The notes below the pieces were generated by a model. The model was not told the DNA's origin. It did not search any database and saw nothing but the letters and a program-made list of their open reading frames with translations. The position numbers and the translations under genes were made by a program. Positions 7,732 to 31,786 of a DNA stretch of 64,000 nt are shown one piece after another. Position 1 is the stretch's first letter. Every line of letters starts with the position of its first letter. The stretch lies in the NCBI RefSeq assembly GCF_988243305.1, contig NZ_OZ547136.1; one strand, written 5' to 3'.

Positions 7732-8988
7732 ATGTTCCGCCGTCTGCTTATCGCAACAGTCGTCGGTATTCTCGCGGCCTTTGCCGTTGCCGGGTTTCGT
7801 CATACGATGCTGCTACTGGAGTGGTTGTTCCTCAATAATGACTCGGGCAGTCTGGTCAATGCAGCGACAAATCTTTCCCCGTGGCGACGGCTGCTAACTC
7901 CGGCGCTCGGCGGACTGGCGGCGGGTTTGTTGCTGATGGGCTGGCAGAAATTTACCCAGCAACGCCCTCATGCGCCGACCGATTACATGGAAGCGTTGCA
8001 AACCGATGGGCAGTTTGATTACGCAGCAAGCCTGGTTAAATCGCTTGCCTCTCTGCTGGTAGTAACCAGCGGCAGTGCAATTGGTCGCGAAGGTGCGATG
8101 ATTCTTTTAGCTGCCCTTGCCGCCTCCTGTTTTGCCCAACGTTTTACGCCACGCCAGGAGTGGAAATTATGGATCGCCTGTGGAGCTGCGGCGGGAATGG
8201 CTGCGGCCTATCGCGCCCCGCTTGCTGGCAGTTTATTTATAGCCGAAGTGCTGTTTGGCACTATGATGTTGGCCTCTCTCGGCCCGGTGATTATTTCCGC
8301 CGTCGTGGCGTTGCTGGTTAGCAATCTGATTAATCATAGCGACGCGTTACTCTACAGCGTACAACTCTCAGTGACGATTCAGGCTCGTGACTATGCGCTG
8401 ATTATCAGTACAGGTGTGCTGGCAGGTCTGGGCGGACCACTGTTGTTAACGTTAATGAACGCCTGTCATCGTGGATTTGTAAGTCTCAAACTTGCGCCGC
8501 CCTGGCAACTGGCACTGGGCGGGTTGATCGTGGGTCTGCTTTCCCTGTTCACACCTGCAGTGTGGGGCAACGGCTATAGCACCGTACAATCCTTTTTAAC
8601 CGCCCCGCCACTGTTAATGATCATTGCCGGGATCTTCCTCTGTAAACTGTTTGCCGTGCTGGCGAGTAGTGGTTCTGGCGCGCCCGGTGGTGTCTTTACA
8701 CCGACGCTATTTATCGGTCTTGCCATTGGCATGTTGTATGGTCGTAGCCTGGGATTATGGTTCCCTGATGGCGAAGAAATTACGCTTTTACTCGGATTGA
8801 CCGGGATGGCGACACTGTTGGCGGCAACCACGCACGCGCCGATTATGTCGACGTTGATGATATGTGAAATGACCGGGGAGTATCAGCTACTCCCCGGTTT
8901 ATTGATTGCCTGCGTAATTGCGTCGGTAATTTCGCGGACGTTACACCGTGACTCTATCTACCGCCAGCACACTGCGAAGCATAGCTAA
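7732..8988 (+). CDS. clcB: ClC-family voltage-gated chloride channel / H+-Cl- antiporter
   Basis: Polytopic membrane protein; start taken at [12 protein letters not shown] (internal Met of track ORF 7672..8988) to give 418 aa. Confidence 0.8.
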
Positions 8989-9636
8989 GCGGATGTATTG
9001 CCCCAGTTCACGCTGTTCGGCGCGCGGCAGATAAGGCAGTTCACCAATGAGCGGTGCCGGAAGTTTTTTACCGAGCACATCAATGATTTCCGCATAATGC
9101 GCCAGTCCTGGATTGATTCGGTTAGCCACCCAGCCAATGAGCGGTAGCCCGTCGTTGGCGATCGCCTGAGCTGTTAGCAGTGCATGGTTAATGCAACCTT
9201 CCTGAATACCGACAACCATCAACACCGGCAGTTGTTCCTGCACCACCCATTCAGAGAGCGGACGCAAATCATTCATCAGACTGCGCCAGCCGCCAGTCCC
9301 TTCTACCACCACATGATCGACTTTATCGGTCAGGTTTGCCAGGCCGTTTGAAATGAGGGTGTAATTGATTGGGCAACTGTGCGCCACGCTACTTTCTTCT
9401 TCGCTTAACGCGATAGGATTAACTGCTTCATAAGGCAGTTCGATGGTTGAAACACTCTGCAACACCAGGGCATCTTTATTACGCAGCCCTTCGGGTGTCT
9501 CTTTGCTCCCCTTCGCTACGGGTTTATATCCCGCAACCGTTTTTCCCTGGGAGGCTAACGCTTGTAGCAATGCGCGGGAAACCACCGTTTTCCCTACAGA
9601 AGTGTCTGTACCGGTAATAAAGAAACGCTTCAGCAT
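8941..9636 (-). CDS. ynfK: Dethiobiotin synthetase paralog (BioD-like ATP-dependent ligase)
   Basis: P-loop GTDTSVGKT near N-terminus; start at MLKRFFITG; 3' end overlaps clcB convergently. Confidence 0.85.
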
Positions 9637-16466: not shown

Positions 16467-17231
16467 ATATAACTTATTTCACATAACACGTTGATTTAAT
16501 TAAATAATTTTCACCGCAAAAAGTGCCAAAAATCGCAAAATGACTACACCAGTGACTACACCGTTCGGTGCACTGTATGAAACAACGTGGAACAAATAGA
16601 CACAAGAAATATACAGGCGGATCATCTTTCCAGGGGGAAGCGCACCAATTCATGAGGGGCGTTAATGTCGATATGGGGATCCCCACCTACCGGAATTTTT
16701 TTCCGGTTAAACGTTAATCAGGCTGGTGGGCTTTACCTGTTCGGTAGGTGTTATGATTATCGTAATACCTTTCCCCCAATGGGGTAAAAGCATCAACCGT
16801 AACGAAAGTCGTTATGGTTGCCACTGATACCCCAAATTTGGGTATCACGAGTAAGACCCAAAATCTGGGTGTTACTCTTACTACCCAAACTACGGGTAGT
16901 TTCCGTAGTTTCATGGTCGAGTTGCAGATCTGCAACTCCCCCATTAACCACAGGCGAATTTCCGCCTTCGGTCATTCCTTAATCATCTGCGTAATCATAA
17001 TGATTATTCAGCAAGCGCAATTTTGCACTTTGCTTAAAGTTCAGCGAGTTACCGCGCCGACTTCCTCAAATTGAGGTTTCCGAAAATATCAGCGGGTTAG
17101 CGATTAAGCTGATCATTAATTAAACTGCGAAAATTTCGTAGTTTGTGACTGTCTTTCAGGCAGCTTGTTAACAGTCCTCAGAAGCGAGGGATGTAGCCAC
17201 CCATTTTTGGTCCGTCGGGAATATCAACCAG

Positions 17232-17513
17232 TTACCGCCGCAACCGCTCCGGCTTCTTCCAGTGGTACGTTATTTTCTCCTTCTCCCGATACATCTCCAC
17301 GCGGCGACGGTAGGCCAGCAACTCAAGAACTCTGGTTCGTATGTTGCGCATATCCACGCCATTAAGTTCTATACCATCACGGCGCATCACCTCAGCAACA
17401 ACACGCGCATAGTTTTCGGCTGTCACGCTGTCCGGCTGCGTGGCCTGTTCGTCAGCCTGCTGGCTGATTCCGGCAACGCGGCGGATTAATCCCGTTATTT
17501 CGGCTTCTGTCAT
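17232..17513 (-). CDS. Hypothetical protein, last gene of the packaging operon
   Basis: 93-aa ORF immediately downstream of the large terminase on the same strand; no recognisable motif. Confidence 0.4.
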   Translation of the reverse strand: MTEAEITGLIRRVAGISQQADEQATQPDSVTAENYARVVAEVMRRDGIELNGVDMRNIRTRVLELLAYRRRVEMYREKEKITYHWKKPERLRR

Positions 17514-17526
17514 GCTGCTGACCTCA

Positions 17527-19188
17527 TTACACCCCGCTAAATTCTTCCAGTTTCTGGCGGTGGCTGTCGCTTATATCAAAAGCAAAATCCTCATGCTCTG
17601 CCTGGAATGTACCAAACGCCATCAGCGCCGCCACGCTCGGGTCTATCTTGTTCGGTGATTTTTTCTTGTTCGGCTTGATATTGGCGTTCGCGTCACTCTG
17701 CATCACGACGTTACTCATCGACCAGGACAACACCGGATCGCCACGATGCACAATCACCCTGCGGTTAACAAAAACTTCGAACGATTTCGCCGCCGGACTG
17801 AATCTGAGGTAGGTTTGCGGGAACGGCTCCACCTCAAAACCTGCCCCCTGTAATTGCGTTCTGAGATGCGTGGCGTTCCACGTATCAAAGCCCACCAGCC
17901 TGATATTAAATTTCTCCGCGTCCTGCATGATGTCATCTCTGATCCGGTCGTAATCAATGCAGTCGCCAGGCGTTGTGCGTATCCAGCCTGCTTTAGCCCA
18001 CTGACGATAGATGGCGCGGTTTTTATTGGCGGGGTTCTGTAGCTGAAATTCCGGCAGATAGTGACGGGAAACCAGCATAATGGTTTTACCGACCGGAAAG
18101 GCATAGCACACGCTGGAAATATCGCTGGTTGATGATAAGTCCAGCCCCGCGTAACACTCCTGGCCGTGTAAATCTTCCTCCGTGAACGTTCCGGCACACT
18201 CAGCCCATGCGCCGTTACCCATCCACGGGGTAGCCCCCAGGCACCAGATATTAAATCGCTTTGTCATCATCTCCACCCACTGCGACGGAATACCCCGCGC
18301 TTTCTGGATGGTTGAGGCCAGTTTTTCACGATCCACGGAAACATCAATATTAGGGTTCGCCTTTATCCACATCGCCGGATCATCAACCTCGTTTTCGTCG
18401 TCCAGTTCGTAAATCAGTACAAAAATTGAATCGTTGACCTCTTCGCCGTCCAGGATCTGGCAGCAATAATCATAGTGCTGCTTACAGGCTGAAACGACGT
18501 TACTGCCTGATGTGGTAATAGCAAATAACAGCCCTTCGGGACGTGCGCCCATCCCCAGCTCAAGCGCGGAATAAACGCCGTTATCGGGGTGCAAGTGGTA
18601 TTCGTCCACGATGGAAAGGCTGGGGTTTGTTCCCTCGATGGTTGCCGCTTTTGCTGCCAGCGGCTTTAACAGGCTGTTGCTTTTCGGGTGTATCACCTTA
18701 TGCGCCTGAATATTCACCCGCCTGCGTAACGGTCGGGATAAAAGGCACATCTGACGCGCATCATCAAAGACGATCCGCGCCTGGTCACGGCTCACCGCTG
18801 CGGTGTAAATATCCTGCTGACCGTTCTCCATAATCAGAAACCAGTTAGCCAGAATCGCGGCGGTCGTGGATTTCGCATTTTTGCGCGGCACTTCGATAAA
18901 GGCGCTCGTGTATTTGCGCCGTCCGGTGGCCTTAACCTTAAAGCCGAGGATGCACGCAAAGGCGAACTGCTGCCACGGCTCCAGCTCAATGGGTCTGCCA
19001 CGCATCGGCCCTTTTACGTGCGGGCACACCCTGGAAAAGGCAATAAACCGCTCCACAACCTCACGATCGAACGTGTAAAGGGGGCTTTCAAGGTCCGAAA
19101 AGTACCGTTTAACGGCCTGTTTCAGCCGTTTACAGGCCGGAATTTTGCCCGTTTTTACGTCTTCTGCGTACTTATTCCAGGCGGTCAA
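17527..19188 (-). CDS. Phage terminase large subunit
   Basis: 553-aa ORF with ATPase N-terminal region and nuclease C-terminal region typical of Terminase_1-type TerL; follows TerS. Confidence 0.85.
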   Translation of the reverse strand: MTAWNKYAEDVKTGKIPACKRLKQAVKRYFSDLESPLYTFDREVVERFIAFSRVCPHVKGPMRGRPIELEPWQQFAFACILGFKVKATGRRKYTSAFIEVPRKNAKSTTAAILANWFLIMENGQQDIYTAAVSRDQARIVFDDARQMCLLSRPLRRRVNIQAHKVIHPKSNSLLKPLAAKAATIEGTNPSLSIVDEYHLHPDNGVYSALELGMGARPEGLLFAITTSGSNVVSACKQHYDYCCQILDGEEVNDSIFVLIYELDDENEVDDPAMWIKANPNIDVSVDREKLASTIQKARGIPSQWVEMMTKRFNIWCLGATPWMGNGAWAECAGTFTEEDLHGQECYAGLDLSSTSDISSVCYAFPVGKTIMLVSRHYLPEFQLQNPANKNRAIYRQWAKAGWIRTTPGDCIDYDRIRDDIMQDAEKFNIRLVGFDTWNATHLRTQLQGAGFEVEPFPQTYLRFSPAAKSFEVFVNRRVIVHRGDPVLSWSMSNVVMQSDANANIKPNKKKSPNKIDPSVAALMAFGTFQAEHEDFAFDISDSHRQKLEEFSGV

Positions 19189-19528
19189 GCTCGTCCTCTT
19201 CTTCTGTTTCCGGTGGATTTTTACGGCGGCTTATCGGGTCAAAACCGAGCAAGGAGGCCATTTTTATCATCACCCTTTCAGCGTCGGATTTTGCGCTTAA
19301 TGCGGGGTTTCTGCTCTCGCCGCCCTGACTGTTAACAATGCTGAACCCGCGCGCCGCAAGGTCTGCAACGGCTTTCCGGTAAATGGAGTAGTTGACACAA
19401 TACAGTTCCAGATTGCTCCAGTCGGCGGGGGTCAGGTCTCCCCGTTCCGCAAGCTGCCGCGATTTTTCCCGCCACTGCTTCACGGCGATGTCATCCAGGT
19501 AGGCGGGGGCTTTCGGTGGTCTTGCCAT
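19172..19528 (-). CDS. Phage terminase small subunit (P27-family-like)
   Basis: 118-aa ORF with acidic C-terminus, immediately upstream of and overlapping TerL; family assignment from recall. Confidence 0.7.
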   Translation of the reverse strand: MARPPKAPAYLDDIAVKQWREKSRQLAERGDLTPADWSNLELYCVNYSIYRKAVADLAARGFSIVNSQGGESRNPALSAKSDAERVMIKMASLLGFDPISRRKNPPETEEEDELDRLE

Positions 19529-19817
19529 ACTTATTTTTTCGCCAGATTATTTTTCAAAAAATTCCCGTGCATAAAAATTTGAGGAGGCGTTCGGTGCCCG
19601 GCGGGGTCGGGTTTGTCCTGAAAACGCCCCCCACCCCGTCATACAGCCTCATCAGCGATTGCGGAAACATTCCATAACCTCGCGGTCACGGTCGGTTAAT
19701 CGCTTCGCTGTGATGCGTTCTGCGCGTCCTGACGCTTTATCTTTATGCCCTGTTTCCTGTGTCTTCCATGCGTCACGCTGCCTTATAAGTCCACGGATAA
19801 GGCGGTTTTGTTCCCGC
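19529..19817. other. Candidate cos/packaging-site region between HNH endonuclease and TerS
   Basis: 289-bp intergenic gap with G+C-rich tracts (GGTGCCCGGCGGGGTCGGG, CGCCCCCCACCCCG); location inferred by analogy with HK97-type HNH-dependent cos phages. Confidence 0.3.
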
Positions 19818-20258
19818 TCATTCATCAGCGTCATACATCCAGTTATTGCGGTTAGCGGACCGTTCTTCCTCTTCACGAAATCCACCTGCGGCACGCTTGC
19901 TTTTTGTTGCCGGATCAAGCCATTTCGTTTTCTGGTTATGACACGCCTGACACAATGGCTGATGGTTCCATTCGGGCCAGAAGAGAACATCATCGCCGCC
20001 ATCGATGGGGATAATGTGATCCACCACCACGGCGGGCGTATATATCCCCTTCTCAAGGCATCGCACGCATAACGGGTTTTTACTCAGATACATGGCGCGG
20101 TATTTGTCCCACTGTCTGGAGTACCCACGCGCGCGGCGGTGTCCTCGTCTGGCATCCTCTGCACGCCATGCCGCCCGCCTGTGCTCCTCACACTTACCGG
20201 ACTTAACGCGCCTGTTACAGCCTGGTTCTGTACATCGTCTTAATGGTTGCCACGGCAT
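19818..20258 (-). CDS. HNH endonuclease
   Basis: Cys-rich N-terminus (CTEPGCNRR...CEEH) and VVDHIIP...NHQPLCQACHNQKT HNH motif; sits immediately upstream of terS. Confidence 0.8.
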   Translation of the reverse strand: MPWQPLRRCTEPGCNRRVKSGKCEEHRRAAWRAEDARRGHRRARGYSRQWDKYRAMYLSKNPLCVRCLEKGIYTPAVVVDHIIPIDGGDDVLFWPEWNHQPLCQACHNQKTKWLDPATKSKRAAGGFREEEERSANRNNWMYDADE

Positions 20259-20554
20259 CAGTACACCCCCACATCACGGTAAGCCGTCCAGAGTGCGCCT
20301 ATCGTCATGGGTACGCGCGTTTTTGCGTTATCCGCGACAATCTGGCGATTTTCATACAGGTGAGCGATAAACATCATGCAGCCAATCTTTATGGCTGGCG
20401 TGAACTCCAGCCCGTCATCAAAGCGCCTGCCTATGTGTATCTGGCACGCCTCAAGCGATGCGGCAATGTATCCGCTGATTAACTGGTCTTCATCGTCGCC
20501 ATCGATGCGGCAATGGAGTTTCACTTCTTCCAGGGTGATAAGTTCTTCTGTCAT
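20258..20554 (-). CDS. Phage gp6-like head-tail connector protein
   Basis: 98-aa ORF MTEELITLEEVKLHCRIDGDDEDQLISGYIAAS... resembling the gp6-like connector family; within the head module. Confidence 0.6.
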   Translation of the reverse strand: MTEELITLEEVKLHCRIDGDDEDQLISGYIAASLEACQIHIGRRFDDGLEFTPAIKIGCMMFIAHLYENRQIVADNAKTRVPMTIGALWTAYRDVGVY

Positions 20555-20889
20555 TTTTCCGCGCCCTCACGACAAAGAATTTCAAGGCGTGTCCTGGCGG
20601 CATCCGGCAACGGTTGCCCGATGATATTCAGTACACGCCCCGCCAGCGGCCCTGTATTGACCTTTATCCGACTGGTGGCGTTGATGTCCTTCCGGTAGCG
20701 TATCCATATCCTTACCGTTCCAGTCGCCAGCTCTGCACCTGATGAAATGGCCTCCTTGCTGCTGATCATGTTCACGCTTGCCCAGAGTGTGTGACCGTCC
20801 ACCCACGTTTCGAGTATTTCGCCGGTTATATCCCTGGTCTGTTTCAGGGTCTGAATCGTTACCCTGTCACGCAGTCGCCCTATGTTCAT
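20551..20889 (-). CDS. Phage head closure / head-tail joining protein
   Basis: Start taken at MNIGRLRDRVTIQ, overlapping the portal stop by 4 nt; resembles head-tail joining family. Confidence 0.6.
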   Translation of the reverse strand: MNIGRLRDRVTIQTLKQTRDITGEILETWVDGHTLWASVNMISSKEAISSGAELATGTVRIWIRYRKDINATSRIKVNTGPLAGRVLNIIGQPLPDAARTRLEILCREGAEK

Positions 20890-22097
20890 TCCGGTTTTTC
20901 TCCCTCGCTGATTTTTACTTCCTGTTTCCATGCCTGGCTGAACTCATCACCACCATCACGCGGGGACAGCCCTTCACGTTCGCGGGCTTCGTTCGGGCAC
21001 ATAACGCCGGATTTGATGCCGCGTTCATAGGTGGCAAAGCGTTCGCCAGGTGTGGCCCGTAACAGGTCCGCGCTGTCAAACTCCACCTGATACCGGATAC
21101 CAGGTACAGGCGAGGCCACCAGCAGGGCGTTTTTTATCTGCTGCTCAAAGTTCGCCAGCCACGGGCGCATCGTCATGGTGAGAAATGCGCGGCTTGCCTC
21201 GCTGAAGTTGCTGTAGGTGCTGTTGCTGTATTCCTGCAAAAAAATCGGCGAGACGTTGAACATTCGGGCGATGTCTTCAATGGTGAAGCGACGGGAGGCC
21301 AGCCATTCGGCATCCTGATTACTCATGCCCAGCTGCTGATAGCTCATCCCCCCTTCAAGGATGGGCGTTTTTCCGGCGTTTCTGGCCCCTTTGTAGCGTT
21401 CCAGTGCGGCTAATGCCTGTTTGCCCTTCACGCCGTCCAGCCATTCGCCTGACGTGATAACCCCTGCCGCCATCATGCCATCACGCATCACGCTCGCGCC
21501 GTGGCGTTGTTGGGCCAGCCCAAGCCCCAGCGATTCGCGGCAGATGGTTACAGGTGAGCGCCCCATAAAACCGTCATCCGTGGAGTAACGAAGGTGGAGA
21601 ACCTCCCACGGTAAATAGTTGCGGGTGTTTCCGGTGTAGGCGTCAGTGATGCAGTAGCGCCAGTTATGATCACCTGTCTGCTCCACGTTCACCGACTGCG
21701 GCGGGTAAGGATGTAAAGCCACCGGAAAACCATCACGCCCCCACTGAATCACCGCATAAGCATTACCGTTTAACAGGCAGTGGCGGATCATCATTCGCTT
21801 AAACTGGTAGGGAGTCTGCCACGCGTTCGGGCGCTCGTTGAGGATGTGATCGACCGGATGAGAATCAAGCCACTCGCGGGCCTCCTTCCCCTTCTCATTG
21901 CGTACCAGGTACAGGTAACACGGCATGGTAGCCACCGCCTCAGAGATGACCGTCACGGCGTTCATGACGGCGGGCAGTGATTCCGCTGTCCCCGATGATA
22001 CGTACTCACCCGCCCCCGTGTTCGATGTGCCAGCCAGCGCCATAAACTCATCAAGCGTCATGCTGCGCTGCTCTTTTTTTCTTCTGAAAGGCCACAT
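20886..22097 (-). CDS. Phage portal protein (HK97 family)
   Basis: 403-aa ORF immediately downstream of the prohead protease; composition and size typical of HK97-type portals. Confidence 0.8.
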   Translation of the reverse strand: MWPFRRKKEQRSMTLDEFMALAGTSNTGAGEYVSSGTAESLPAVMNAVTVISEAVATMPCYLYLVRNEKGKEAREWLDSHPVDHILNERPNAWQTPYQFKRMMIRHCLLNGNAYAVIQWGRDGFPVALHPYPPQSVNVEQTGDHNWRYCITDAYTGNTRNYLPWEVLHLRYSTDDGFMGRSPVTICRESLGLGLAQQRHGASVMRDGMMAAGVITSGEWLDGVKGKQALAALERYKGARNAGKTPILEGGMSYQQLGMSNQDAEWLASRRFTIEDIARMFNVSPIFLQEYSNSTYSNFSEASRAFLTMTMRPWLANFEQQIKNALLVASPVPGIRYQVEFDSADLLRATPGERFATYERGIKSGVMCPNEAREREGLSPRDGGDEFSQAWKQEVKISEGEKPE

Positions 22098-22098
22098 A

Positions 22099-22671
22099 TC
22101 ACACCCCCGCTAAATCCACCCACCAGCGGCGATTATCCGCACGCGGCATTTTTTCGGGGTGCTGCTCATACAGGGAACGGCGGGCCAGCTCCACGCCGGA
22201 ATCGGGGTAAGCCGGTACCGATGTAACGGTAATTTCGTACAGTTCCGCCACCAGCACGGTGCGCACGCATGGATCTGTTGTGGTATCCCATACATCCTTA
22301 CGGGAGCGAAAGCCAAAGCTCATCCCCGAGATGTCCCCACGCTTAACCAGTTCGATAACGTCGCGCCCTGTACTGGTATCCGGTGGGGTCAGTTCAAAGC
22401 GTAACCCTGTTTCGTCCTCTTCCAGTTTCAGCGTGCCGGAACGGGTGCGCCCCAGTAACATGCTGTGGTCATGCTCATACAGGCCGCGAACGTCATTACC
22501 CGCCGCAAGCCACTCAGTAAACGCCCCCCGCTGGAATTTTTCGTAAAACTCCCCCCATAGCAGTTCTGAAAGCTTATCCCAGCGAACAACGTAGCCCGTC
22601 AGCGTACCGGCTCCGCTGGTAGTGATTTCCGATGACCGGATTTCCATACTCTTCATAATTTTTTCACCCAT
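22099..22671 (-). CDS. HK97-family prohead maturation protease
   Basis: 190-aa ORF between major capsid and portal genes; sequence resembles the S78-type prohead protease family. Confidence 0.75.
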   Translation of the reverse strand: MGEKIMKSMEIRSSEITTSGAGTLTGYVVRWDKLSELLWGEFYEKFQRGAFTEWLAAGNDVRGLYEHDHSMLLGRTRSGTLKLEEDETGLRFELTPPDTSTGRDVIELVKRGDISGMSFGFRSRKDVWDTTTDPCVRTVLVAELYEITVTSVPAYPDSGVELARRSLYEQHPEKMPRADNRRWWVDLAGV

Positions 22672-22710
22672 AAAACACTAAAGGGGCTTTTAAGCCCCTT
22701 CTGTATGCTG

Positions 22711-23868
22711 TTAATCGTCGTCCTGTGGCAGTTCCAGAATCTTGATCGCGTTCGAATCCACCACGCCACCGCCTAAATATTTCTGCGTGAAAATTTTGAT
22801 GAAGCCCGGCTCTGTGAGGTTGTCCGGTCTGGTGCGAACACCTGTTTCGTGATCAACAATGTAGTAACCGCGTTTGAAGTCACCCAGGGCAATAACGTTA
22901 TCCGGCATAAACTCCAGATATTCGACCGGAAGGCCCAGTAACGTATCAGGATCACCCGCCTGTAAACGGTCGCGCCAGATGTAATCACCGTTCGCGTTCT
23001 TCACCTTCTGAAGTTTTGCCGCCGTCGTGGAGTTAACCACCCAGACCGCGTTTTTGCGGTATTTTTTACGTAATGCAAATTTCAGGTCGATCAGCGGGTC
23101 CGCAGATGTCCACGCCAGAGATTCGGAAGGTTTAATTACCTGCAACGTACCAAAATCACGCTCTTTGTCGTTCTTCTCTGCACGGGGTACGGATAAAAAA
23201 CCTTTTGCTTTTTTGTCACCGTCGCCCACAACCAGATCGCTTTCTTCGGTTTCCGTGAAGGTGTCGCCAATCTCGCCCGTCAGCCATGAAAGGATGTCCA
23301 CATCGGAAAAATCCACGATTTCCTGTGTGGTGCGCGGGTACGCATAGACCGGATACAGCTTAATGCTCACCTCGTTAATCTGCGGGGTGCTGGTCTGTTC
23401 GCGTGTCTTACCCTCTTCACCGTGGTTAACGGTCGCACCGCCAGCGGAAACAAGCTGCTTAAACTCGTTGCTGCTGATTTTCTTCACGGTACAGATGCGG
23501 CGCATGGTGGACTCATCCGCCAGCATTCGCATGATTTCGGTGTTCAGTTCGGGGATAACGGTATAACCACCATCAGCGGGAACGCCTGTACTTAATGCGC
23601 GGGTTTCACCTGTCAGAATGTAGTTGCGTAGTTCTGCGGGGTCAGTGGTCTGGCTGCTTTTACCTGGCTTGCTGCGCTCTTCGTCTGCAATGGCTTCAAG
23701 GCGGGAAATGTCTTTATCGAGGGATTCAGCTTTAGCGCGTAATTCGTCAAATTTTGCGCCCTCAGCATCGTTAAGACTGCGGTTTTCTTTTTCCGCGTTC
23801 TCCAGCATGTCGCGCATCTGATTTTTAATGGCGGTTTTCTGCTGGCGTAATTCGATTATTCTCGGCAT
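22711..23868 (-). CDS. HK97-fold major capsid protein with N-terminal coiled-coil (scaffold-like delta) domain
   Basis: Start taken at the ATG for MPRIIELRQQKT; the track ORF extends to a TTG at 23913; N-terminal charged coiled-coil followed by a capsid-like body. Confidence 0.8.
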   Translation of the reverse strand: MPRIIELRQQKTAIKNQMRDMLENAEKENRSLNDAEGAKFDELRAKAESLDKDISRLEAIADEERSKPGKSSQTTDPAELRNYILTGETRALSTGVPADGGYTVIPELNTEIMRMLADESTMRRICTVKKISSNEFKQLVSAGGATVNHGEEGKTREQTSTPQINEVSIKLYPVYAYPRTTQEIVDFSDVDILSWLTGEIGDTFTETEESDLVVGDGDKKAKGFLSVPRAEKNDKERDFGTLQVIKPSESLAWTSADPLIDLKFALRKKYRKNAVWVVNSTTAAKLQKVKNANGDYIWRDRLQAGDPDTLLGLPVEYLEFMPDNVIALGDFKRGYYIVDHETGVRTRPDNLTEPGFIKIFTQKYLGGGVVDSNAIKILELPQDDD

Positions 23869-23906
23869 AAAAAAAAGTCCTGGGGTTAAGTAAGGAACTC
23901 CAGGAC
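23869..23906 (-). terminator. Stem-loop plus U8 run immediately abutting the capsid gene start codon
   Basis: Minus strand reads GTCCTGGAGTTCCTTACTTAACCCCAGGAC followed by TTTTTTTT then ATG. Confidence 0.5.
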
Positions 23907-24111
23907 GCGGCAAACACTCAACCGTTTTTCATAAGGAAATCAGCAATCGCACCGATCGTTTTCCCGCCTGGTAATGAATATTGGCGAGCACATTAACAGG
24001 CGGGAAAGTGGCCCCAGCGTCCTGGCACCACGGGCGAGAATAATCATGATTCAGTTCGGGTAAAATATGCCGATCCGCTCAGTGAACAACGTGGAACAAC
24101 CACGAACAAAT

Positions 24112-24149
24112 AATTTACAAAAAATAACAAAAAGCCGGATTGCTCCGGC
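24112..24149 (-). terminator. Rho-independent terminator downstream of the small gene 24170..24394
   Basis: Minus strand GCCGGAGCAATCCGGC hairpin followed by TTTTTGTTATTTTTT. Confidence 0.6.
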
Positions 24150-24169
24150 TGTATGTGCTGTATGGGTGC

Positions 24170-24394
24170 TCAGTCTCTGATCCCTTTCAGAAATTCTATC
24201 AATGCATCTGTCTGTTCAGGATTTACTGCCAGCATTTCACCGGATAGCGCGCAACGAACAAAACCATGATGATCCTTTTCAATCAGTGCGCCCGTCTCCA
24301 GGAATGCGCGGTAATCATTGATGCTCATCGTCTCCATGTTGTCAGCATGGTATTTATCACGCTGTTTTAATATCTCATCAAATTTCATCGGCAT
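24170..24394 (-). CDS. Small hypothetical protein (74 aa) in a terminator-bounded cassette
   Basis: ATG at 24394 preceded by AGAGGAAAAAACA RBS; terminators on both sides. Confidence 0.55.
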   Translation of the reverse strand: MPMKFDEILKQRDKYHADNMETMSINDYRAFLETGALIEKDHHGFVRCALSGEMLAVNPEQTDALIEFLKGIRD

Positions 24395-24488
24395 TGTTTT
24401 TTCCTCTGTTGTGTCTGTTTGTTTCAGATAGTAACTATGCCTGACCGTGACGAAAACCCGGTAATGCGCCATACCGTTTCAACTGGTG

Positions 24489-24512
24489 CAAAAAAAGCCG
24501 GATTTCTCCGGC
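24489..24512 (-). terminator. Rho-independent terminator ending the replication-region operon
   Basis: Minus strand GCCGGAGAAATCCGGC hairpin followed by TTTTTTT. Confidence 0.6.
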
Positions 24513-24563
24513 TGTGTGATTAGCTGTCCTGGTAATTGCGCCATATTTCATCACCAGCACCAT

Positions 24564-24833
24564 CTATCCCCATTTCGGCATAAGTGCGATCGACTGCCTT
24601 TTCAGGTCTCCGTAATTATCCGGTGGCTCCGGTGGCCTCTGTGCCTTCCTGGAACATTCCAGCCGTCGCATCGTGATGTGATGCCGTTCCTTGTCTGTCT
24701 CCACCAGCAGCATGACTTCACCCCATCGCGCCGACGCCCTCCGGTAAAATCCTTTAGCCTCGAGTTCCTCCGCTATGCGGTCATGTACCATCCTCACCCC
24801 CTCAGAACGGAATACCGTCACCGTAAGGGTCAT
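24564..24833 (-). CDS. Hypothetical protein downstream of ssb; start uncertain (24833 or 24791)
   Basis: ORF in track 24564..24911; candidate ATG starts at 24833 (GGGAGG upstream) and 24791 (GTGAGG upstream). Confidence 0.4.
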   Translation of the reverse strand: MTLTVTVFRSEGVRMVHDRIAEELEAKGFYRRASARWGEVMLLVETDKERHHITMRRLECSRKAQRPPEPPDNYGDLKRQSIALMPKWG

Positions 24834-25212
24834 CGCCTCCCGCTGGTGGCTGATTACCCTGTGTGCCTGTGGTTTTGCGTCTGTTCCCGCCAGGACGTGC
24901 CGCACGGGCACTGATTACGCTGTCTGCAATAACCTGCCAGCCCTGCCGCGTTTCTCCGTTCTGTCCGGTCCACTGGCTTACCTGCATCGTGCCGGATACG
25001 CTGGCAACATCGCCTTTTTGATGTTTAGCCAGGAAGTCGGCCTGTTTGCCAAATGCGATGACCGATAACCATAACGTCGCCTGTCCGTCCTGTGCCTGGC
25101 TGCATGGCAAAGATACCGCCATACGCGCCAGCGTCATCGGTGTGCCCTTGCTGGTCTGTTTTACCTGCGGGTCGTCCACCAGCCGCCCGTAAGCGGCTAT
25201 CTGTGCCGTCAT
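24802..25212 (-). CDS. ssb: Single-stranded DNA-binding protein
   Basis: 136-aa ORF with Gly/Gln-rich linker and C-terminal acidic tail ending DDPYGDGIPF, the hallmark SSB C-terminus. Confidence 0.8.
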   Translation of the reverse strand: MTAQIAAYGRLVDDPQVKQTSKGTPMTLARMAVSLPCSQAQDGQATLWLSVIAFGKQADFLAKHQKGDVASVSGTMQVSQWTGQNGETRQGWQVIADSVISARAARPGGNRRKTTGTQGNQPPAGGDDPYGDGIPF

Positions 25213-25490
25213 AATTCCACCTCTCCGGTTTTAACGTTGATGGTTGTTACCTGTTCCGCTTCGGCAATCTCCCGTTCTGTCAGCGTGGCAAAGTTTGCCG
25301 CCGCCGTGGTCATGAATGCGCTTATCAGGTCGGGATGTTCCTTCGCGTATCCTTCCCGCGTGTGGCGGTCTATCGTTCTGATTGCCACCTTTAAAGCGTG
25401 CTCAGTCATGTCTAACGCTTTATATTTTGGCTCTGTTCTGTCTCTGCGTTTTTGGGTCATTTCTCGCAACCTCTCACTTTTTCGCCTCAC
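25209..25490 (-). CDS. Hypothetical basic protein upstream of ssb
   Basis: 93-aa ORF overlapping ssb start by 4 nt; 5' end overlaps the iteron array so true start may be internal. Confidence 0.4.
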   Translation of the reverse strand: MRRKSERLREMTQKRRDRTEPKYKALDMTEHALKVAIRTIDRHTREGYAKEHPDLISAFMTTAAANFATLTEREIAEAEQVTTINVKTGEVEL

Positions 25491-25662
25491 TTTTTCAAGC
25501 GTCTCACTTCGTCGCAGTTGGGATTTTCGGTTTTTCTATGTGTGTGTTTCATAAGTATTTTTTTACCCCTCACTTTTGAGGATGTATACAGGTCGAAAAG
25601 TGAGGGAGAGCGGGCTAATTTTGGCCCTCTTTCTATCCCCCTCGCTTTTGCTCCTCACTTTT
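25470..25662. repeat. Iteron array (CTCACTTTT, about 7 copies including one inverted); putative replication origin
   Basis: Copies at 25473, 25486, 25502 (imperfect), 25569, 25596 (inverted), 25640 (imperfect), 25654; immediately 3' of the replication ATPase gene. Confidence 0.6.
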
Positions 25663-27061
25663 ATAGCGGCGCTACATCATCCCCATCGATACGAATAACC
25701 CCATCTTTTTCCAGCTTGTACAGCCAGCGCCGGAAGTTTTTCATTTCATACCCCAGTTTTTTCATGTCATCACGTAACAGCGGGATCGTGCACTTGTCGC
25801 CGTTCTGTGTGCGTGAACGGATGCACCCCCATAGCGCGGTATGGTTTTCCGTCTTGTTCCCTGCCTCCTCGATGCGCTCCAGTTCAACAGGAGGGCGCGG
25901 ATCATCCACCACTACCAGCGACGTGATTAATTCACCGTCAGCGTCGGTAAAAAGCTCCACCACGCGTAAGTCATATGCGGCTTCTTTGAGTTCCTCCGCG
26001 TCCTTCATTTTGGTGCATGAGATAACCAGCGCTTCGCTTCCTGCGTCCTCCCTGCGTATCCGGTATTCAGCATCCAGCGAAGCACGAAATGCACTGGAAC
26101 CGCGCGCGCCTTTCGTCTCATCCTTGCCGGAATGGTGAACCACCAGCACCGTGGCCCCTGTGCGTCGTTTCAGTTCGTCACAACCACGGATAAACGCCCC
26201 CATATCACGGGAATCATTTTCATCATTCCCACCAAAGCAACGCGCCAGCGTATCCAGAATAATCATGCGTACAGGTTTACCCGTTTCCCGCTCCACCTGA
26301 CGGGCAGCGATAACCATTTCATCAACATCAAGCGGGGCAGCCGGAAAGATGGGGCGGTTTACCAGATACAGATTTTTCACCTGCTCATCGTGCACAACCT
26401 CCCAGGCTTTTACACGACGCGGAACACCTATACCGCCTTCACCAACCACATAGAGAACCGCACCATGTGCAACCCTGCGGCCTCCCCACTGGCGACCAGT
26501 GGCAACATGGCACGCCCACGATCCGGCAAGGAATGATTTATAGGACCCGCTAGCCCCGTATATGCTGCATAGCGATACCGCCGGAATAATCCCCTTAACC
26601 ACGTAATCCAGTTGCGTGTCGTATCCGGTAGATCCAACGCTCATCGGTAGCGTGGTTTTTCGCTGGTGGTTTTTTTCTTCCACCGGCTCTTTCCCGCGCA
26701 CCCGTTCCAGGTATTCGCGCCAGTTCTCCCGCATATGGCTGTGCATCCCTTCGGGGTAATAATTCGCATCAGTTACACCCGCCGCCGCCAGCTTGTGCGC
26801 AATGGCATTAATATTTGATGGCCTGATGTGGCCTGCCTTGTACAGCCGGACACAATAGCGCCCCTCGTCGATGATTCTCAGGTCTGCCAGTTCATCCAGT
26901 TGATCATCAGCCAGCACAACGGGAGGCACATTATCGCCAGCCAGTCGCCCGTCCTGTTCCTGCCACTGTTTCGCATGTGCCCAGGCATCACTACCCGCAA
27001 AAATAATGACTTCGGTCATCTTGTCGTAAGGCTGTTTTTTTAAGTTCGGTGCGCTTTTCAT
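25661..27061 (-). CDS. Replication initiator with RecA-fold ATPase domain (satellite Pri-Rep-like)
   Basis: 466-aa ORF with Walker A-like YGASGSYKS and downstream ILDTL Walker B-like segment. Confidence 0.65.
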   Translation of the reverse strand: MKSAPNLKKQPYDKMTEVIIFAGSDAWAHAKQWQEQDGRLAGDNVPPVVLADDQLDELADLRIIDEGRYCVRLYKAGHIRPSNINAIAHKLAAAGVTDANYYPEGMHSHMRENWREYLERVRGKEPVEEKNHQRKTTLPMSVGSTGYDTQLDYVVKGIIPAVSLCSIYGASGSYKSFLAGSWACHVATGRQWGGRRVAHGAVLYVVGEGGIGVPRRVKAWEVVHDEQVKNLYLVNRPIFPAAPLDVDEMVIAARQVERETGKPVRMIILDTLARCFGGNDENDSRDMGAFIRGCDELKRRTGATVLVVHHSGKDETKGARGSSAFRASLDAEYRIRREDAGSEALVISCTKMKDAEELKEAAYDLRVVELFTDADGELITSLVVVDDPRPPVELERIEEAGNKTENHTALWGCIRSRTQNGDKCTIPLLRDDMKKLGYEMKNFRRWLYKLEKDGVIRIDGDDVAPL

Positions 27062-27357
27062 TTCTTGCCCCTGAATCCGTTAATCATGGTTTTCAGCTTC
27101 TGGATGTTTGCCCGTGCCCTGGCGTTGCTGGTGGGCACGTTATGCGGCGCGGTCTGTACCAGAGAAAAATCACGCCGGAACTGATAAACAGGCATCACGC
27201 AATCATATTCGTAACCTTCACGGCGGTAGGTTACGCGCCGTTCTTCCACGCCCTTAATCATTACCGTGCCGCCGTACTGGTCGCGGTAAATATCACCGCG
27301 CGTAAATTTAGGGTGAGTGTTGCCACTGGCAGTTAAGCCAGAATATTTAAGTTTCAT
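27058..27357 (-). CDS. Hypothetical protein, translationally coupled to the replication gene
   Basis: 99-aa ORF whose stop overlaps the replication ATPase start by 4 nt. Confidence 0.45.
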   Translation of the reverse strand: MKLKYSGLTASGNTHPKFTRGDIYRDQYGGTVMIKGVEERRVTYRREGYEYDCVMPVYQFRRDFSLVQTAPHNVPTSNARARANIQKLKTMINGFRGKK

Positions 27358-27362
27358 TATTT

Positions 27363-27596
27363 TTATTCTCCGGTGTGCTGTTCTTTATATCTGTCGTGCA
27401 ATAGATCTATTTCTTGCAGTTCCATTATTACAGGCTCAAGAAGCGTTATTAATGCCGTGGCAATTCTTGATTTTTGTTTGTCGCGTTCATTGTCGCCAAG
27501 TGTTTCAAGCCATATGCGCAATATTTCCAGCATGTTTTCACTGTGAGAAAGTGCAAGAAATACGCGGTCTATTGTTTCGTGGTAAATATCACGCAT
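27363..27596 (-). CDS. Hypothetical small protein
   Basis: 77-aa ORF tightly packed between neighbouring ORFs on the same strand. Confidence 0.4.
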   Translation of the reverse strand: MRDIYHETIDRVFLALSHSENMLEILRIWLETLGDNERDKQKSRIATALITLLEPVIMELQEIDLLHDRYKEQHTGE

Positions 27597-27597
27597 A

Positions 27598-28034
27598 TTA
27601 ATCCCCGTCCGTCGTTTTTCTTAAAATAACCTCTGTCACGAAATCAGCATAATCGGCGGCGATATTCAGTACATCAAGCCCCGTTGATTTATATTCTCTC
27701 GTGGAAAGTAAGAAAAAAGCCGCTCTAATAAGTTCTGGCATTGACGAAAGCGCATCAGCCGCATCATCAGGAACGCCGGAAAATTCCTGTTTCAGGGAAT
27801 TAAAACGATCATCACGCATAACCCCCCCCCATTTTCACAATCAGCAACAAGAATATTTTTAGCGTCATTCAGCGACCGCGTTGCGATGTATCGGATACAT
27901 TCCAGGGCGAACTGTGTCCGGTCTTTCTGTTCTTCTCCCTGCGCAAGCTCTGCAGTGCATTCAATATCGATAAGCGCGTGCATCAGCGTAGTGAGCGCGG
28001 CGGCTGCTGCGTCCGGTGTGGTTTTATTGCACAT
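27598..28034 (-). pseudogene. Gene split into two frames by a G9 homopolymer tract (27822-27830); frameshifted or phase-variable
   Basis: Upstream part starts at ATG 28034 with AGGAGG RBS and ends 27792; downstream part 27598..27819 begins 3 nt after the tract in the +1 frame. Confidence 0.55.
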
Positions 28035-28314
28035 GGCACACCTCCTGACGAATACGGGCGGCGAATACAGCAACACAACCGGACGGGCAACGGCTACGCG
28101 CTTCGCGTTCCGTCCAGGCGGTTACGTGGATGATTTGAGATTCTCCGGCACTTAGTGCCAGAAAACGCCACACAAAGGCCGTTTGTGTGTGTATAAGGCG
28201 TGGTATATGATTTACGGCAACCATAACGGCTCCTAGTTTACGTTGTTGGTTAGACGCCCCGTATGTGTTCCCAGCACTGCGGGGCGTTGATTTTTGTGTA
28301 ATGGCAAGTACAAT

Positions 28315-28358
28315 GGTAATTACCATGTAGGTATAGTAATGAAGGGTAATTACCATGT
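28315..28358. promoter_or_regulatory. Two copies of 14-bp repeat GGTAATTACCATGT, each containing the perfect palindrome GGTAATTACC; putative operator
   Basis: Copies at 28315-28328 and 28345-28358, 30 bp apart; second copy overlaps the ATG of the small plus-strand gene; region lies between divergent gene sets. Confidence 0.55.
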
Positions 28359-28528
28359 CAACACCATTAGAAAAACGTTCGCCTCCATACCAAATGCGAT
28401 TACCGGAAGACTTCAGAGCGCAGCTAGAAGAAGCAGCTAAGGCCGATGGCGACACATCTTTAGCCACTTGGATTAAACGCGTTCTCCGCAAAGAATTACA
28501 GCAACGCGGCATAGAGCCAAAAGGTTGA
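28355..28528 (+). CDS. Small putative DNA-binding protein (Arc/MetJ-type ribbon-helix-helix-like), 57 aa
   Basis: ATG 28355 to TGA 28526-28528: MSTPLEKRSPPYQMRLPEDFRAQLEEAAKADGDTSLATWIKRVLRKELQQRGIEPKG; one of only two plus-strand genes in the island. Confidence 0.5.
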   Translation: MSTPLEKRSPPYQMRLPEDFRAQLEEAAKADGDTSLATWIKRVLRKELQQRGIEPKG

Positions 28529-28549
28529 ATTTCAGAAGGAGATAAAATA

Positions 28550-28702
28550 ATGAACTGGCTGTTACATACCCTCCCAGGTCGCATTCTCATTGCACTAATT
28601 ATTTTATGGATTTTGTACCAATTCGGTTTTTTCGATTCGCTTTGGAAGCCTGACTGTTCCGTTAACCCTGGCGATGTACTGAAAGGCTGTAAAAATGGCT
28701 GA
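28550..28702 (+). CDS. Small hydrophobic peptide (50 aa), predicted membrane-associated
   Basis: AGGAG RBS 8 nt upstream of ATG 28550; MNWLLHTLPGRILIALIILWILYQFGFF... single hydrophobic segment. Confidence 0.45.
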   Translation: MNWLLHTLPGRILIALIILWILYQFGFFDSLWKPDCSVNPGDVLKGCKNG

Positions 28703-29057
28703 TCAGGGTTACTCCCTGTAATGCCTTTAACTGGCCCTCTTAAAGAGGGTTGGTTATCTTCGCAGCTCTCTACGTTTTTCGTCGGAACCTCTGAACCTAA
28801 GCAGTGTTGATGTTCAGGAGAACCCGAATACTGTTCGTGTTCGTTGCTCGCCAATTCTCGCGTTTCGCGATAATCAAAATGATTCAATGGGTTGAGATGT
28901 CCGTACGTTAAACGTACGCGGTTAATTTGTACATGCGAATTTCGTCGGCTCAAATTCTGCGCAACCCTGCTTGAGTTATGCAAATAGCACGCGGCTAACT
29001 CACAAGGATTTGAGCGCCCCCAAACGGGGGAGCGCAAAATTTTAGGCATAAGACGCA

Positions 29058-29771: not shown

Positions 29772-29828
29772 GGTTATAGCTCTGTGTTCAGATGATTGAT
29801 GTGTGGCGGCTGCGTGCCGCCAGCGTGA

Positions 29829-31611: not shown

Positions 31612-31786
31612 GTTTTACCCCCTCTTTACGAAAAAGTGACTACACCAGTGACTACACCGATCGTTGCACAAAGGGCTACAACGTGAAACAAGCTGGAACA
31701 AGGAAAATCACAAATCTGTTGATAATCAAAAACATAATGCACAGCCTGAAACATTATGAAACAGCAAAAAACACTAAATGATAAAA

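Follow-up and report, generated by a model that had tools for sequence, protein, structure and literature searches.

The tail-to-tail overlap of clcB and ynfK in Enterobacteriaceae: shared coding ends and a ynfK mRNA 3′ end at a hairpin inside clcB

The convergent genes clcB and ynfK share the last 48 bp of their coding sequences, and the question raised by this locus is whether such an overlap is simply the standard arrangement of two host genes or whether it allows each mRNA end to act on the other gene as antisense RNA, a possibility only mentioned by the original prediction, which took the standard arrangement to be the probable one. In this study, we examined the overlap in a window of 64,000 nucleotides (NCBI RefSeq assembly GCF_988243305.1, contig NZ_OZ547136.1) and relate it to genome comparisons and to published transcript data. 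All positions are those of the window, which are obtained from chromosomal coordinates as window = MG1655 - 1657583. The two genes and their shared segment are as follows.

7732..8988, + strand: clcB coding sequence (open reading frame list, RefSeq, phmmer to ClcA structures, Pfam Voltage_CLC on orthologs)
8941..9636, - strand: ynfK coding sequence, also called bidA and named bioD by PGAP (open reading frame list, RefSeq, alignment to BioD structures)
8941..8988, both strands: dual-coding overlap of 48 bp, with ClcB L404-S418 plus stop antisense to YnfK L217-V231 plus stop
8941-8943, - strand: ynfK stop TAA, facing the ClcB Leu404 codon TTA
8986-8988, + strand: clcB stop TAA, facing the YnfK Leu217 codon TTA

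The list of open reading frames and the letters themselves both confirm the overlap of clcB (to 8988) with ynfK (from 8941): the + strand reads TAA at 8986-8988, and tta at 8941-8943 is TAA on the - strand. MG1655 RefSeq puts both stops at identical places (clcB 1665315..1666571; bidA/b1593 1666524..1667219), again giving 48 bp, and the annotation of strain 135 carries the identical overlap. An earlier stop in the reference, which would have refuted the original prediction, is therefore not what the annotation shows. With the MG1655 start the clcB product is 418 aa long, the PGAP start in strain 135 being at 7696. The overlap comprises 16 codons per frame, and the codon boundaries of the two genes coincide, position 1 of either frame lying opposite position 3 of the other. 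In this register, antisense stops are possible only opposite TTA, CTA or TCA, and because these make up only 4.1% of clcB codons, the chance of an antisense frame staying open for at least 15 codons is P = 0.54 at the codon composition of clcB. As a bare open reading frame event, the length of the overlap is not improbable; what stands above chance is its conservation. Two nearby convergent gene pairs of this region share 4 bp each.

The distribution of the arrangement bears out the expectation that this is host sequence in its standard form. The clcB-ynfK junction was found in 5410 of 5426 complete E. coli genomes, and an overlap of 39-48 bp lies at the same place in every one of the 20 clcB-bearing Enterobacteriaceae taxa examined (Escherichia to Klebsiella, Cedecea and Entomohabitans). 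It measures 48 bp in Escherichia, Cedecea, Enterobacter-like strains, Entomohabitans, Klebsiella, Buttiauxella, Kluyvera and Scandinavium, 45 bp in Citrobacter and Salmonella arizonae, and 39 bp in Raoultella. Throughout these 20 taxa the ClcB codon opposite the ynfK stop is TTA or CTA, both rare leucine codons, and the ynfK stop is thereby kept as TAA or TAG; the clcB stop in other taxa is TAA, TAG or TGA, facing TTA, CTA or TCA in YnfK. Nearly all of the listed YnfK orthologs have 231 aa. The clcB-ynfK overlap is ordinary host sequence, already annotated and known. We are confident that it is genuine, ancient and standard in Enterobacteriaceae, that it is no special device, and that the 3′ end of the ynfK mRNA is set by a hairpin inside clcB.

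At the protein level, homology backs both frames up to or into the overlap. ClcB is a chloride/proton transporter paralog of the CLC family (phmmer to ClcA structures, E = 4.5e-26) and its orthologs carry Pfam Voltage_CLC; the alignment with ClcA spans residues 5-402 of the 418 (to 411 for entry 1kpl), and ClcB S408-R411, the SIYR segment, aligns with the post-helix segment of ClcA. YnfK, with 231 aa, is a dethiobiotin synthetase paralog that matches E. coli BioD structures over residues 1-220 (E = 5e-65). Since both frames are supported by homology as far as the overlap, the stops are not frame artefacts. Relative to ClcA, ClcB has a much shorter C-terminus (418 vs 473 residues), and YnfK carries an 11-residue tail absent from BioD. 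The ends that differ from BioD and ClcA are the overlapping ends of YnfK and ClcB. A literature search on BidA function found nothing relevant, and the expression evidence used here for clcB and ynfK consists of literature data only.

Both gene tails are under purifying selection in the overlap, judging from the pattern of substitutions. Synonymous diversity of the overlap is the lowest of 404 16-codon windows in clcB (0.316 vs a mean of 0.524, sd 0.065) and the sixth lowest of 216 windows in ynfK; nearly any base substitution within it would alter at least one protein. At the amino-acid level no part of YnfK varies more than this tail (divergence 0.385 vs a gene mean of 0.115), as would be expected if R221-V231 were a functionless read-through, derived from an old stop loss into clcB and conserved only via ClcB. 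This explanation also draws on BioD ending at YnfK residue 220, which places the last 11 residues outside the BioD fold, on the ease with which an in-register antisense frame stays open (P = 0.54, above), and on 3′ extension being a known origin of overlaps (PMC2478687), from which the clcB/ynfK overlap, like conserved convergent pairs, is plausibly derived. Against it stand the genomes in which clcB has been lost. In four clcB-less genera YnfK is still exactly 231 aa long and retains the tail motif ..L..[D/E]R[VIL]x[AV]*, including its D-R pair, while the codons vary synonymously; we rejected on these grounds the idea that the tail passively mirrors ClcB. Furthermore, the clcB remnant of Citrobacter NCU1 carries one change that is nonsense for ClcB yet synonymous for YnfK, and clcB deletions always end before reaching the ynfK stop. 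A functionless tail is, in our judgement, unlikely. Short YnfK variants were considered as natural tail truncations and set aside, since the forms of 216-227 aa found in E. coli and Shigella have lost internal residues and still possess the tail; a Salmonella variant of 213 aa (P0073) is frameshifted near the C-terminus, and the normal tail is absent from it.

Since the overlap leaves nothing between the two genes, the ynfK transcription unit has its end within clcB. Three features of the - strand describe this end.

8872..8898, - strand: stem-loop whose 11-bp stem pairs 8888-8898 with 8872-8882 around a 5-nt loop (8883-8887), from terminator scan, folding and comparison
8864..8940, - strand: ynfK 3′ UTR of 77 nt, wholly within the clcB open reading frame (TRS Supplementary Data 2, PMC10687069)
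8931, - strand: summit of the Rho termination region for ynfK (Adams et al. 2021, PMC7815308; an 800-nt-window statistic of low positional resolution)

The hairpin occupies clcB codons T381-G389, its first base being the 42nd after the ynfK stop, and a 41-nt spacer lies in between. Its fold has a z of -3.8, and its minimum free energy of -21.5 kcal/mol compares with -6.4 +/- 2.7 kcal/mol for synonymous recodings of the same peptide (p ~2e-4). Over 14 species, only 4 of the 165 clcB columns with an invariant residue also have an invariant codon, and 3 of these (GAA, ACC, CTC) are at the hairpin, where the Pro codon CCC is likewise kept (13/13). At one stem pair, a compensatory change from G-C to C-G is seen in four genera (4 of 20 distinct sequences), the Leu387 codon being CTG solely in the four taxa whose pairing partner went from G to C; this switch was probably a single evolutionary event common to four related genera. 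The covariation score was reached by 0 to 1 of 500 shuffles, a control that ignores relatedness. In the clcB remnants of two Citrobacter genomes, the hairpin differs by 4%, vs 23-40% across the remnant body. Such patterns argue for selection on the hairpin beyond the protein-coding needs of ClcB. Counts from promoter and terminator scans were near shuffled expectation (3 vs 2.6; 4 vs 3.7), and a permissive-threshold Rfam scan of 7400-10000 gave no family match at the hairpin; the hits to SR6 antitoxin (23 bits vs a gathering score of 55) and sR32 were discarded as chance-level, far below gathering scores. Where clcB is missing, ynfK is followed by a canonical intrinsic terminator (Kosakonia, uncultured Enterobacter, Phytobacter) or by a GC hairpin (Pseudescherichia); clcB-less genomes have a textbook bidirectional terminator at the place equivalent to the embedded hairpin. 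At least two strains tolerate IS200 insertions that part the hairpin from ynfK.

Published 3′-end data place the end of the ynfK mRNA at this hairpin. The terminus maps to 1666442-1666455 on the - strand of the chromosome, with a dominant position at 1666447 (window 8864), is classed as ‘Primary’, and has adjusted p values of 4e-15, 4e-9 and 2e-11 in three replicates (PMC10687069). The mRNA thus ends in ...CCCCGGUCAUUUCAC, 8 nt past the stem and 77 nt past the ynfK stop, and covers the final 125 nt of the clcB open reading frame in antisense, in agreement with the expectation that an mRNA end would run antisense to the partner gene. This end comes from one TRS data sheet only, which is probably a re-analysis of the Dar and Sorek Term-seq data. 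Mapped Rho termination includes a region at 1666514(-) that is classed as primary with respect to ynfK and as antisense with respect to clcB. Its Rho score is 4.2 (p = 1.5e-6), with upstream/downstream reads of 85/11 in untreated cells and 292/159 with bicyclomycin (PMC7815308); the downstream/upstream ratio at the ynfK end accordingly moves from 0.13 to 0.54. The curated tables of Adams et al. hold no dominant Term-seq 3′ end at this place (PMC7815308), and the TERMITe supplements have no entry for clcB or ynfK.

How does this end compare with known ones? As in intrinsic terminators, there is a GC-rich stem-loop, and the RNA 3′ end, 8 nt after the stem, lies within the usual 7-9 nt. Unlike in intrinsic terminators, the tail that follows the stem in the ynfK sense, CAUUUCAC, has only 3 U in 8 and is poor for this purpose, termination is at least partly dependent on Rho, and the hairpin lies within an open reading frame. 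A GC-rich hairpin common to two convergent units is also a trait of bidirectional intrinsic terminators (Ju et al. 2019, via bioRxiv 10.1101/2022.10.23.513370). A closer parallel in the ynfK-sense features is offered by the general model of stem-loop-protected, Rho-dependent 3′ ends with no U tract (Dar and Sorek 2018, PMC6061677). The ynfK end resembles the ends of that model in its stable stem-loop, its steady-state 3′ end just beyond, its U-poor tail and its bicyclomycin-sensitive read-through. It departs from them in that the stem-loop lies in the coding sequence of the convergent gene and must encode T-G-E-Y-Q-L-L-P-G of a CLC transporter. Ends of this type are marked by a C-rich, G-poor rut region close behind the stem-loop and by PNPase or RNase II trimming; at ynfK, C-richness downstream is only moderate (C/G 1.2-1.5 over the first 250 nt).

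We propose the following explanation. The last 15 codons and stop of ynfK are read antisense, and in register, to the last 15 codons and stop of clcB; past the ynfK stop, a 41-nt spacer leads into the GC-rich stem-loop encoded in ClcB T381-G389, which would define the mRNA 3′ end. The hairpin may be a weak intrinsic terminator that Rho supports, or it may block exonucleases at the end of a transcript terminated by Rho, and in either role it would limit antisense transcription into clcB. Direct evidence covers the overlap and its conservation, selection on the hairpin, the mapped 3′ end and the bicyclomycin-sensitive read-through at the end of ynfK.

The hairpin could instead serve clcB: it might attenuate the clcB mRNA from within the gene or stabilise it, or it might truly terminate transcription in both directions. 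The terminator scan rates it as terminator-like on the + strand, where the tail is UAUUGAUUGC, and makes no call on the - strand; its minimum free energy in the clcB sense is equally low (p = 6e-4 by synonymous recoding), and a T-rich + strand tail occurs in Escherichia, some Citrobacter, Klebsiella and Kluyvera, the Escherichia tail being richer in U in the clcB sense than in the ynfK sense. This tail is, however, not T-rich in the Cedecea group or in Salmonella, and a terminator 87 nt ahead of the clcB stop would truncate the message. Substitutions in the stem mostly read as G.U pairs in ynfK-sense RNA and as A.C mismatches on the clcB side; the core 8 pairs are 97.5% paired in ynfK-sense RNA (11 G.U pairs) and 92.5% in clcB-sense RNA. 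The hairpin moreover persists in Citrobacter remnants whose clcB promoter and first 306 codons are deleted, and the sole mapped 3′ end is on the - strand. A hairpin that serves clcB seems to us distinctly unlikely. As for a clcB terminator inside ynfK, the 121 nt past the clcB stop are no more stably folded than shuffled sequence (z = 0.22) and no cluster of invariant codons was found near the ynfK 3′ end; the published 3′-end tables searched (Adams et al., TRS) contain no clcB 3′ end.

The antisense interaction that had been considered possible would, in its strongest form, make the 125-bp zone 8864..8988 a selected, excludon-type regulatory module, in which anaerobic, FNR-driven transcription of ynfK lowers ClcB output, or the reverse, by collision of RNA polymerases or by RNase III cutting of the ~125-bp duplex, and in which the hairpin sets the reach of interference. 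If true, an anaerobic biotin-pathway paralog and a chloride/proton transporter would be coupled; biotin synthesis and chloride transport are not, to our knowledge, functionally linked. The excludon, reportedly described by Sesto et al. in 2013, involves a long antisense RNA reaching across the neighbouring gene, with reciprocal expression. Transcripts of opposite-strand neighbours do overlap at clcB/ynfK, but their antisense reach is ~125 nt at the 3′ end. In favour of a regulatory module, the full-length clcB and ynfK mRNAs are necessarily complementary, the overlap is very old, and ynfK is directly activated by FNR (PMC3688515); in total RNA-seq, clcB has about as many antisense as sense reads, vs a ratio of ~0.05 in neighbours, on our inferred meaning of the table columns (PMC7373196). 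On the other side, p19-captured dsRNA reads are unremarkable for both genes (8-31 RPM), neither of which appears in the dsRNA cluster tables, and convergent 3′ overlaps in general give 37.9-fold fewer dsRNA reads than divergent 5′ overlaps (PMC7373196). The long antisense RNA across a neighbour that marks an excludon is not seen: ynfK transcripts stop 77 nt past the stop codon, and Rho curbs read-through. The repeated losses of clcB without change in ynfK also speak against such a module. No evidence supports a regulatory antisense interaction of clcB and ynfK, and we consider it very unlikely that the zone is a selected device of this kind.

Finally, long overlaps are frequently misannotations, but an annotation or frame artefact is almost certainly not the explanation here and was rejected, given that the stop codons do not depend on gene-calling choices, that the reference annotation, the constant ortholog lengths and the homology reaching the overlap support both frames, and that 48 bp is below the flagged 60-bp class in the convergent orientation, the sole one with accepted long overlaps (PMC2478687).

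With the overlap accepted as genuine and the ynfK mRNA taken to end at the embedded hairpin, the locus can be placed among other convergent pairs, which account for ~7% of well-characterised overlaps (PMC2478687). Candidate long convergent overlaps are mostly conserved in very close species only (Palleja et al. 2008, PMC2478687). Like the conserved convergent pairs of Rogozin et al. 2002 (as cited in PMC2478687), clcB and ynfK are independently homologous genes with shared 3′ ends in several genomes. They differ from usual convergent pairs in sharing 48 bp as opposed to a few bases, and in doing so across many genera as opposed to very close species (PMC2478687).

The overlap alone matters little, being in the reference annotation and one case of a known class; its worth, a modest one, lies in being a clean and well-controlled case. 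What is added to it here is the dual constraint, the conserved hairpin, and the published ynfK 3′ end mapped onto that hairpin. About 117 bp of clcB (8872..8988) hold three layers of information, namely the ClcB protein, the C-terminus of YnfK and the stem-loop at the 3′ end of the ynfK mRNA. Natural controls exist in the clcB-loss lineages with a textbook terminator, in the remnants that conserve only the hairpin and the ynfK tail, and in the IS200 insertions, which disrupt the arrangement. Recoding or deleting the clcB 3′ end, as in knockout collections or codon-optimised constructs, alters YnfK or removes its mRNA end signal; because this one segment carries both, a clcB phenotype could be a ynfK effect, and vice versa.

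Both stop codons of the clcB/ynfK pair can be read directly from the sequence, which confirms the convergent 48-bp overlap of the original prediction. The features concerned are as follows.

8986-8988, + strand: TAA stop of clcB (CLC transporter), whose 3′ end is at 8988 (ORF list and sequence)
8941-8943, − strand: tta, read as the TAA stop of ynfK (BioD-like product), whose 3′ end is at 8941 (ORF list and sequence)
8941..8988, both strands: clcB/ynfK overlap, 48 bp (stop codons read from the sequence)
8871..8899: hairpin of 12 pairs, starting 42 nt past the ynfK stop in the ynfK sense (terminator scan)

The arrangement is identical in the RefSeq annotation of MG1655, with clcB at 1665315..1666571 and bidA (b1593, formerly ynfK) at 1666524..1667219 (window position + 1657583), and in strain 135 (99.8% identity to the window); the stops agree in both, neither being placed earlier. 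The overlap is therefore already known, being present in reference annotation. Its two frames lie in exact codon register, ClcB L404-418 plus stop against YnfK L217-231 plus stop, so that each stop codon faces a TTA leucine codon of the partner.

Elsewhere, relative to strain 135, the window carries a 15.3-kb insertion at 16467..31786. It separates the mdtJ/ydgV side from tqsA and has a 9-bp direct repeat (TGCTGTTAT) on its two sides. At least 80% of it was found in only 58 of 5426 E. coli genomes, where its annotated content (tyrosine integrase, RepA-family helicase, terminase large subunit, portal and major capsid) points to a small element, either prophage-like or a capsid-forming satellite.

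As a bare open reading frame event, the clcB/ynfK overlap is no more than chance. In this register antisense stops arise only opposite TTA, CTA or TCA codons, and because these account for only 17 of the 418 clcB codons, a frame that comes in from the 3′ end has P = 0.54 of running for at least 15 codons without a stop. Overlap was found in 3 of the 8 convergent gene pairs in 50 kb around the locus, two by 4 bp and clcB/ynfK by 48 bp; the former, folM/ydgC (39441..39444, TTAA serving as a double stop) and tus/fumC (approximate window position 42.93 kb), provide a baseline for overlaps of this kind in the region. Among 338 genomes surveyed, convergent pairs made up 7% of well-characterised overlaps, and real long overlaps (> 60 bp) were accepted in convergent orientation only (PMC2478687).

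The non-chance aspect is the persistence of the overlap. Of 5426 complete E. coli genomes, 5410 carry a 146-nt stretch that covers both the hairpin and the overlap, and in 3840 the match reaches at least 99% identity. Comparison loci were drawn from a ClcB scan of a species-representative genome collection (19 loci) and from exact-protein look-ups of YnfK orthologs (9 loci), and the overlap has the same position in all 20 taxa having clcB beside ynfK. The length is 48 bp in Escherichia (four species), a Cedecea/Enterobacter-like group, Entomohabitans, Klebsiella oxytoca, Buttiauxella, Kluyvera and Scandinavium, 45 bp in Citrobacter and Salmonella arizonae, and 39 bp in Raoultella. Both counts, in E. 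coli and across clcB-bearing taxa, bear out the earlier view of this region as host sequence in a probably standard arrangement. The overlap persists despite divergence, as amino-acid identity across the same genomes is 84-95% for YnfK and only 55-79% for ClcB. YnfK is thus far better conserved than its overlapping partner (window 7732..9636 compared with loci L003-L030), and 3 of the 8 invariant ynfK codons (AAG, CGT, TTC) lie within the first five.

Codon alignments of 14 species were used to examine constraint on the two tails. Synonymous diversity in the last 16 codons of clcB is 0.316, the lowest of 404 windows of the same size (mean 0.524, sd 0.065), and that of the last 16 ynfK codons ranks sixth lowest of 216. 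The ClcB codon facing the ynfK stop alternates between the rare leucine codons TTA and CTA in 20 of 20 taxa and is never the common CTG, which would destroy that stop. YnfK R221-V231 forms an extension beyond the BioD fold, since the end of BioD aligns exactly to YnfK residue 220, and this tail is the most variable portion of an otherwise very conserved protein; ClcB S408-R411 aligns to the ClcA segment following the last helix. Our first view, that the YnfK tail is a passive overprint of ClcB, was overturned by its retention in genomes lacking clcB: in Kosakonia, Pseudescherichia, Phytobacter and an uncultured Enterobacter, YnfK is still exactly 231 aa long and ends in ..L[VIA][AC]DR[VI]LA, with the D-R pair retained through synonymous codon changes. 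In Phytobacter clcB was lost secondarily, because the antisense frame there still resembles a decayed ClcB tail (LRQNSIRHQH), and synteny also points to secondary loss (dmsD-clcB-ynfK in Escherichia and Klebsiella vs dmsD-ynfK in Phytobacter; ABC transporter-clcB-ynfK in Buttiauxella vs ABC transporter-ynfK in Kosakonia). Retention of the YnfK tail without clcB, taken together with the constraint on the overlap, shows that both protein tails are selected, and the conserved end of each protein mostly faces the more variable part of the other.

Each gene can also be lost. clcB is naturally dispensable, with at least four genera lacking it while ynfK is intact, and E. coli E69 has an in-frame stop in clcB. 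ynfK (8941..9636) is itself recurrently inactivated in some pathogens, with eight independent pseudogenisations reported in a Shigella sonnei lineage (PMC6811581) and a frameshifted 213-aa variant (P0073) in 278 Salmonella sequences.

The hairpin occupies ClcB codons T381-G389 and adjoins a tyrosine aligned to the Y of the ClcA EMTDNYQL motif. As protein constraint alone could retain much of the sequence beside such a conserved motif, extra selection was tested. The 121 nt around the hairpin have a fold z of −3.8. Only 4 of 165 invariant-residue columns have an invariant clcB codon (14 species), and 3 of these (Glu GAA, Thr ACC, Leu CTC) lie in or next to the stem; for the hairpin Pro, 13 of 13 species use the rare codon CCC. 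The minimum free energy is −21.5 kcal/mol, compared with a mean of −6.4 ± 2.7 for the same peptide recoded with local codon usage, and about 2 in 10,000 synonymous recodings are as stable. For the core 8 pairs, scored over 21 sequences, the paired share of cells is 97.5% in ynfK-sense RNA vs 92.5% in the clcB sense, synonymous G-to-A changes in clcB giving G.U in the former and A.C in the latter. One stem pair is switched from G-C to C-G in Klebsiella, Raoultella, Kluyvera and Scandinavium, by ClcB E383Q (GAG to CAG) together with a change of Leu387 from CTC to CTG, the commonest leucine codon and restricted here to these genera. This compensatory switch is supportive but short of proof, because a single event probably accounts for it and the shuffle control takes no account of phylogeny.

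Genomes with a damaged or missing clcB serve as natural controls. Citrobacter Awk4 and NCU1 share a deletion of ~1.1 kb that removed the clcB promoter and codons 1-306. Decay of the remnant shows in its body, where 23-40% of positions differ from an intact relative and frame-breaking indels are present; divergence is only 4% in the hairpin with its flank (46 nt) and 2-9% in the ynfK-coding tail (Fisher p = 5e-7 and 0.003). Among clcB-less genomes, Kosakonia, the uncultured Enterobacter and Phytobacter have a textbook intrinsic terminator downstream of ynfK, that of Kosakonia (AAAAAGCCCCTCATCGGAGGGGCTTTTGTT) directly following the ynfK stop and the others being similar, and Pseudescherichia has a GC hairpin after ynfK. 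In E. coli AST85 and 1579, an IS200-family element lies directly beside the hairpin (8898..8904, TTTATTG on both sides), truncating clcB and parting the hairpin from ynfK; read in the ynfK sense, the element supplies a canonical terminator at its end (CCTCCGGCATAGCCGGAGG then TTTTT). The two copies share 96% identity and have flanks from different lineages, suggesting an insertion hot spot.

From the hairpin results we predicted a minus-strand 3′ end at about MG1655 1666447-1666455. The 3′ termini published in the TRS study include a ‘Primary’ terminus for ynfK at chr(−) 1666442-1666455, dominant at 1666447 and significant in three replicates (PMC10687069, Supplementary Data 2). This position is window 8864, 8 nt beyond the stem and 77 nt beyond the ynfK stop. 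Judged by file position, the sheet is most likely a re-analysis of Dar and Sorek’s Term-seq data. Adams et al. place Rho termination in a region at 1666514(−), which they class as primary for ynfK and as antisense for clcB. Bicyclomycin shifted downstream/upstream reads there from 11/85 to 159/292 (Rho score 4.2, p = 1.5e-6), and their curated Term-seq tables contain no 3′ end at this site (PMC7815308). Rho-dependent transcripts, according to Dar and Sorek, end just past stable stem-loops without a U tract, which block 3′ exonucleases (PMC6061677). The ynfK-sense tail after the hairpin is CAUUUCAC, and the RNA downstream has a C/G of 1.2-1.5. On the best reading, the end of the ynfK mRNA is set by the hairpin, and it may arise by weak intrinsic termination backed by Rho or, alternatively, by Rho-dependent termination followed by trimming.

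Upstream of clcB, a premature terminus in its 5′ UTR at window position about 7667 (MG1655 1665250, +; PMC10687069, Supplementary Data 3) follows a hairpin GCGGC...GCCGC then AAAAUAGUCG, which suggests attenuation; dmsD has a separate primary terminus at 1665172 in the same study.

The original prediction also held that each mRNA end is antisense to the other gene, with a possible interaction. The first part stands, as the ynfK mRNA can pair with the final 125 nt of the clcB ORF; the second finds no counterpart in dsRNA clusters. ynfK is directly FNR-activated (PMC3688515). In p19 dsRNA capture, clcB and ynfK gave 8-31 reads per million and are absent from the dsRNA cluster tables, and dsRNA reads from convergent 3′ overlaps were in general 37.9-fold fewer than those from divergent 5′ overlaps (PMC7373196). 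Total RNA values from the same study, in columns inferred as sense/antisense, are about equal for clcB (4.6/3.6, 3.3/3.9, 5.0/5.0) and 19.7/1.3, 27.1/0.9 and 14.1/1.5 for ynfK. The near-equal clcB values fit weak clcB expression reached by some ynfK-sense transcription and are no evidence of regulation; a selected regulatory role for the antisense overlap is very improbable.

The clcB/ynfK pair belongs among the conserved convergent overlapping gene pairs, a known class, and lies outside the definition of an excludon. Its element at the ynfK 3′ end acts in the manner of the stem-loops that close Rho-dependent transcripts, or of a weak bidirectional terminator, and differs from a canonical intrinsic terminator in two defining features, the U tract and Rho independence. 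As far as our searches show, the conserved embedded hairpin with its natural controls has not been described as such in the literature searched, and it exemplifies known mechanisms. In practice, an edit to the 3′ end of clcB or of ynfK also affects the partner gene.
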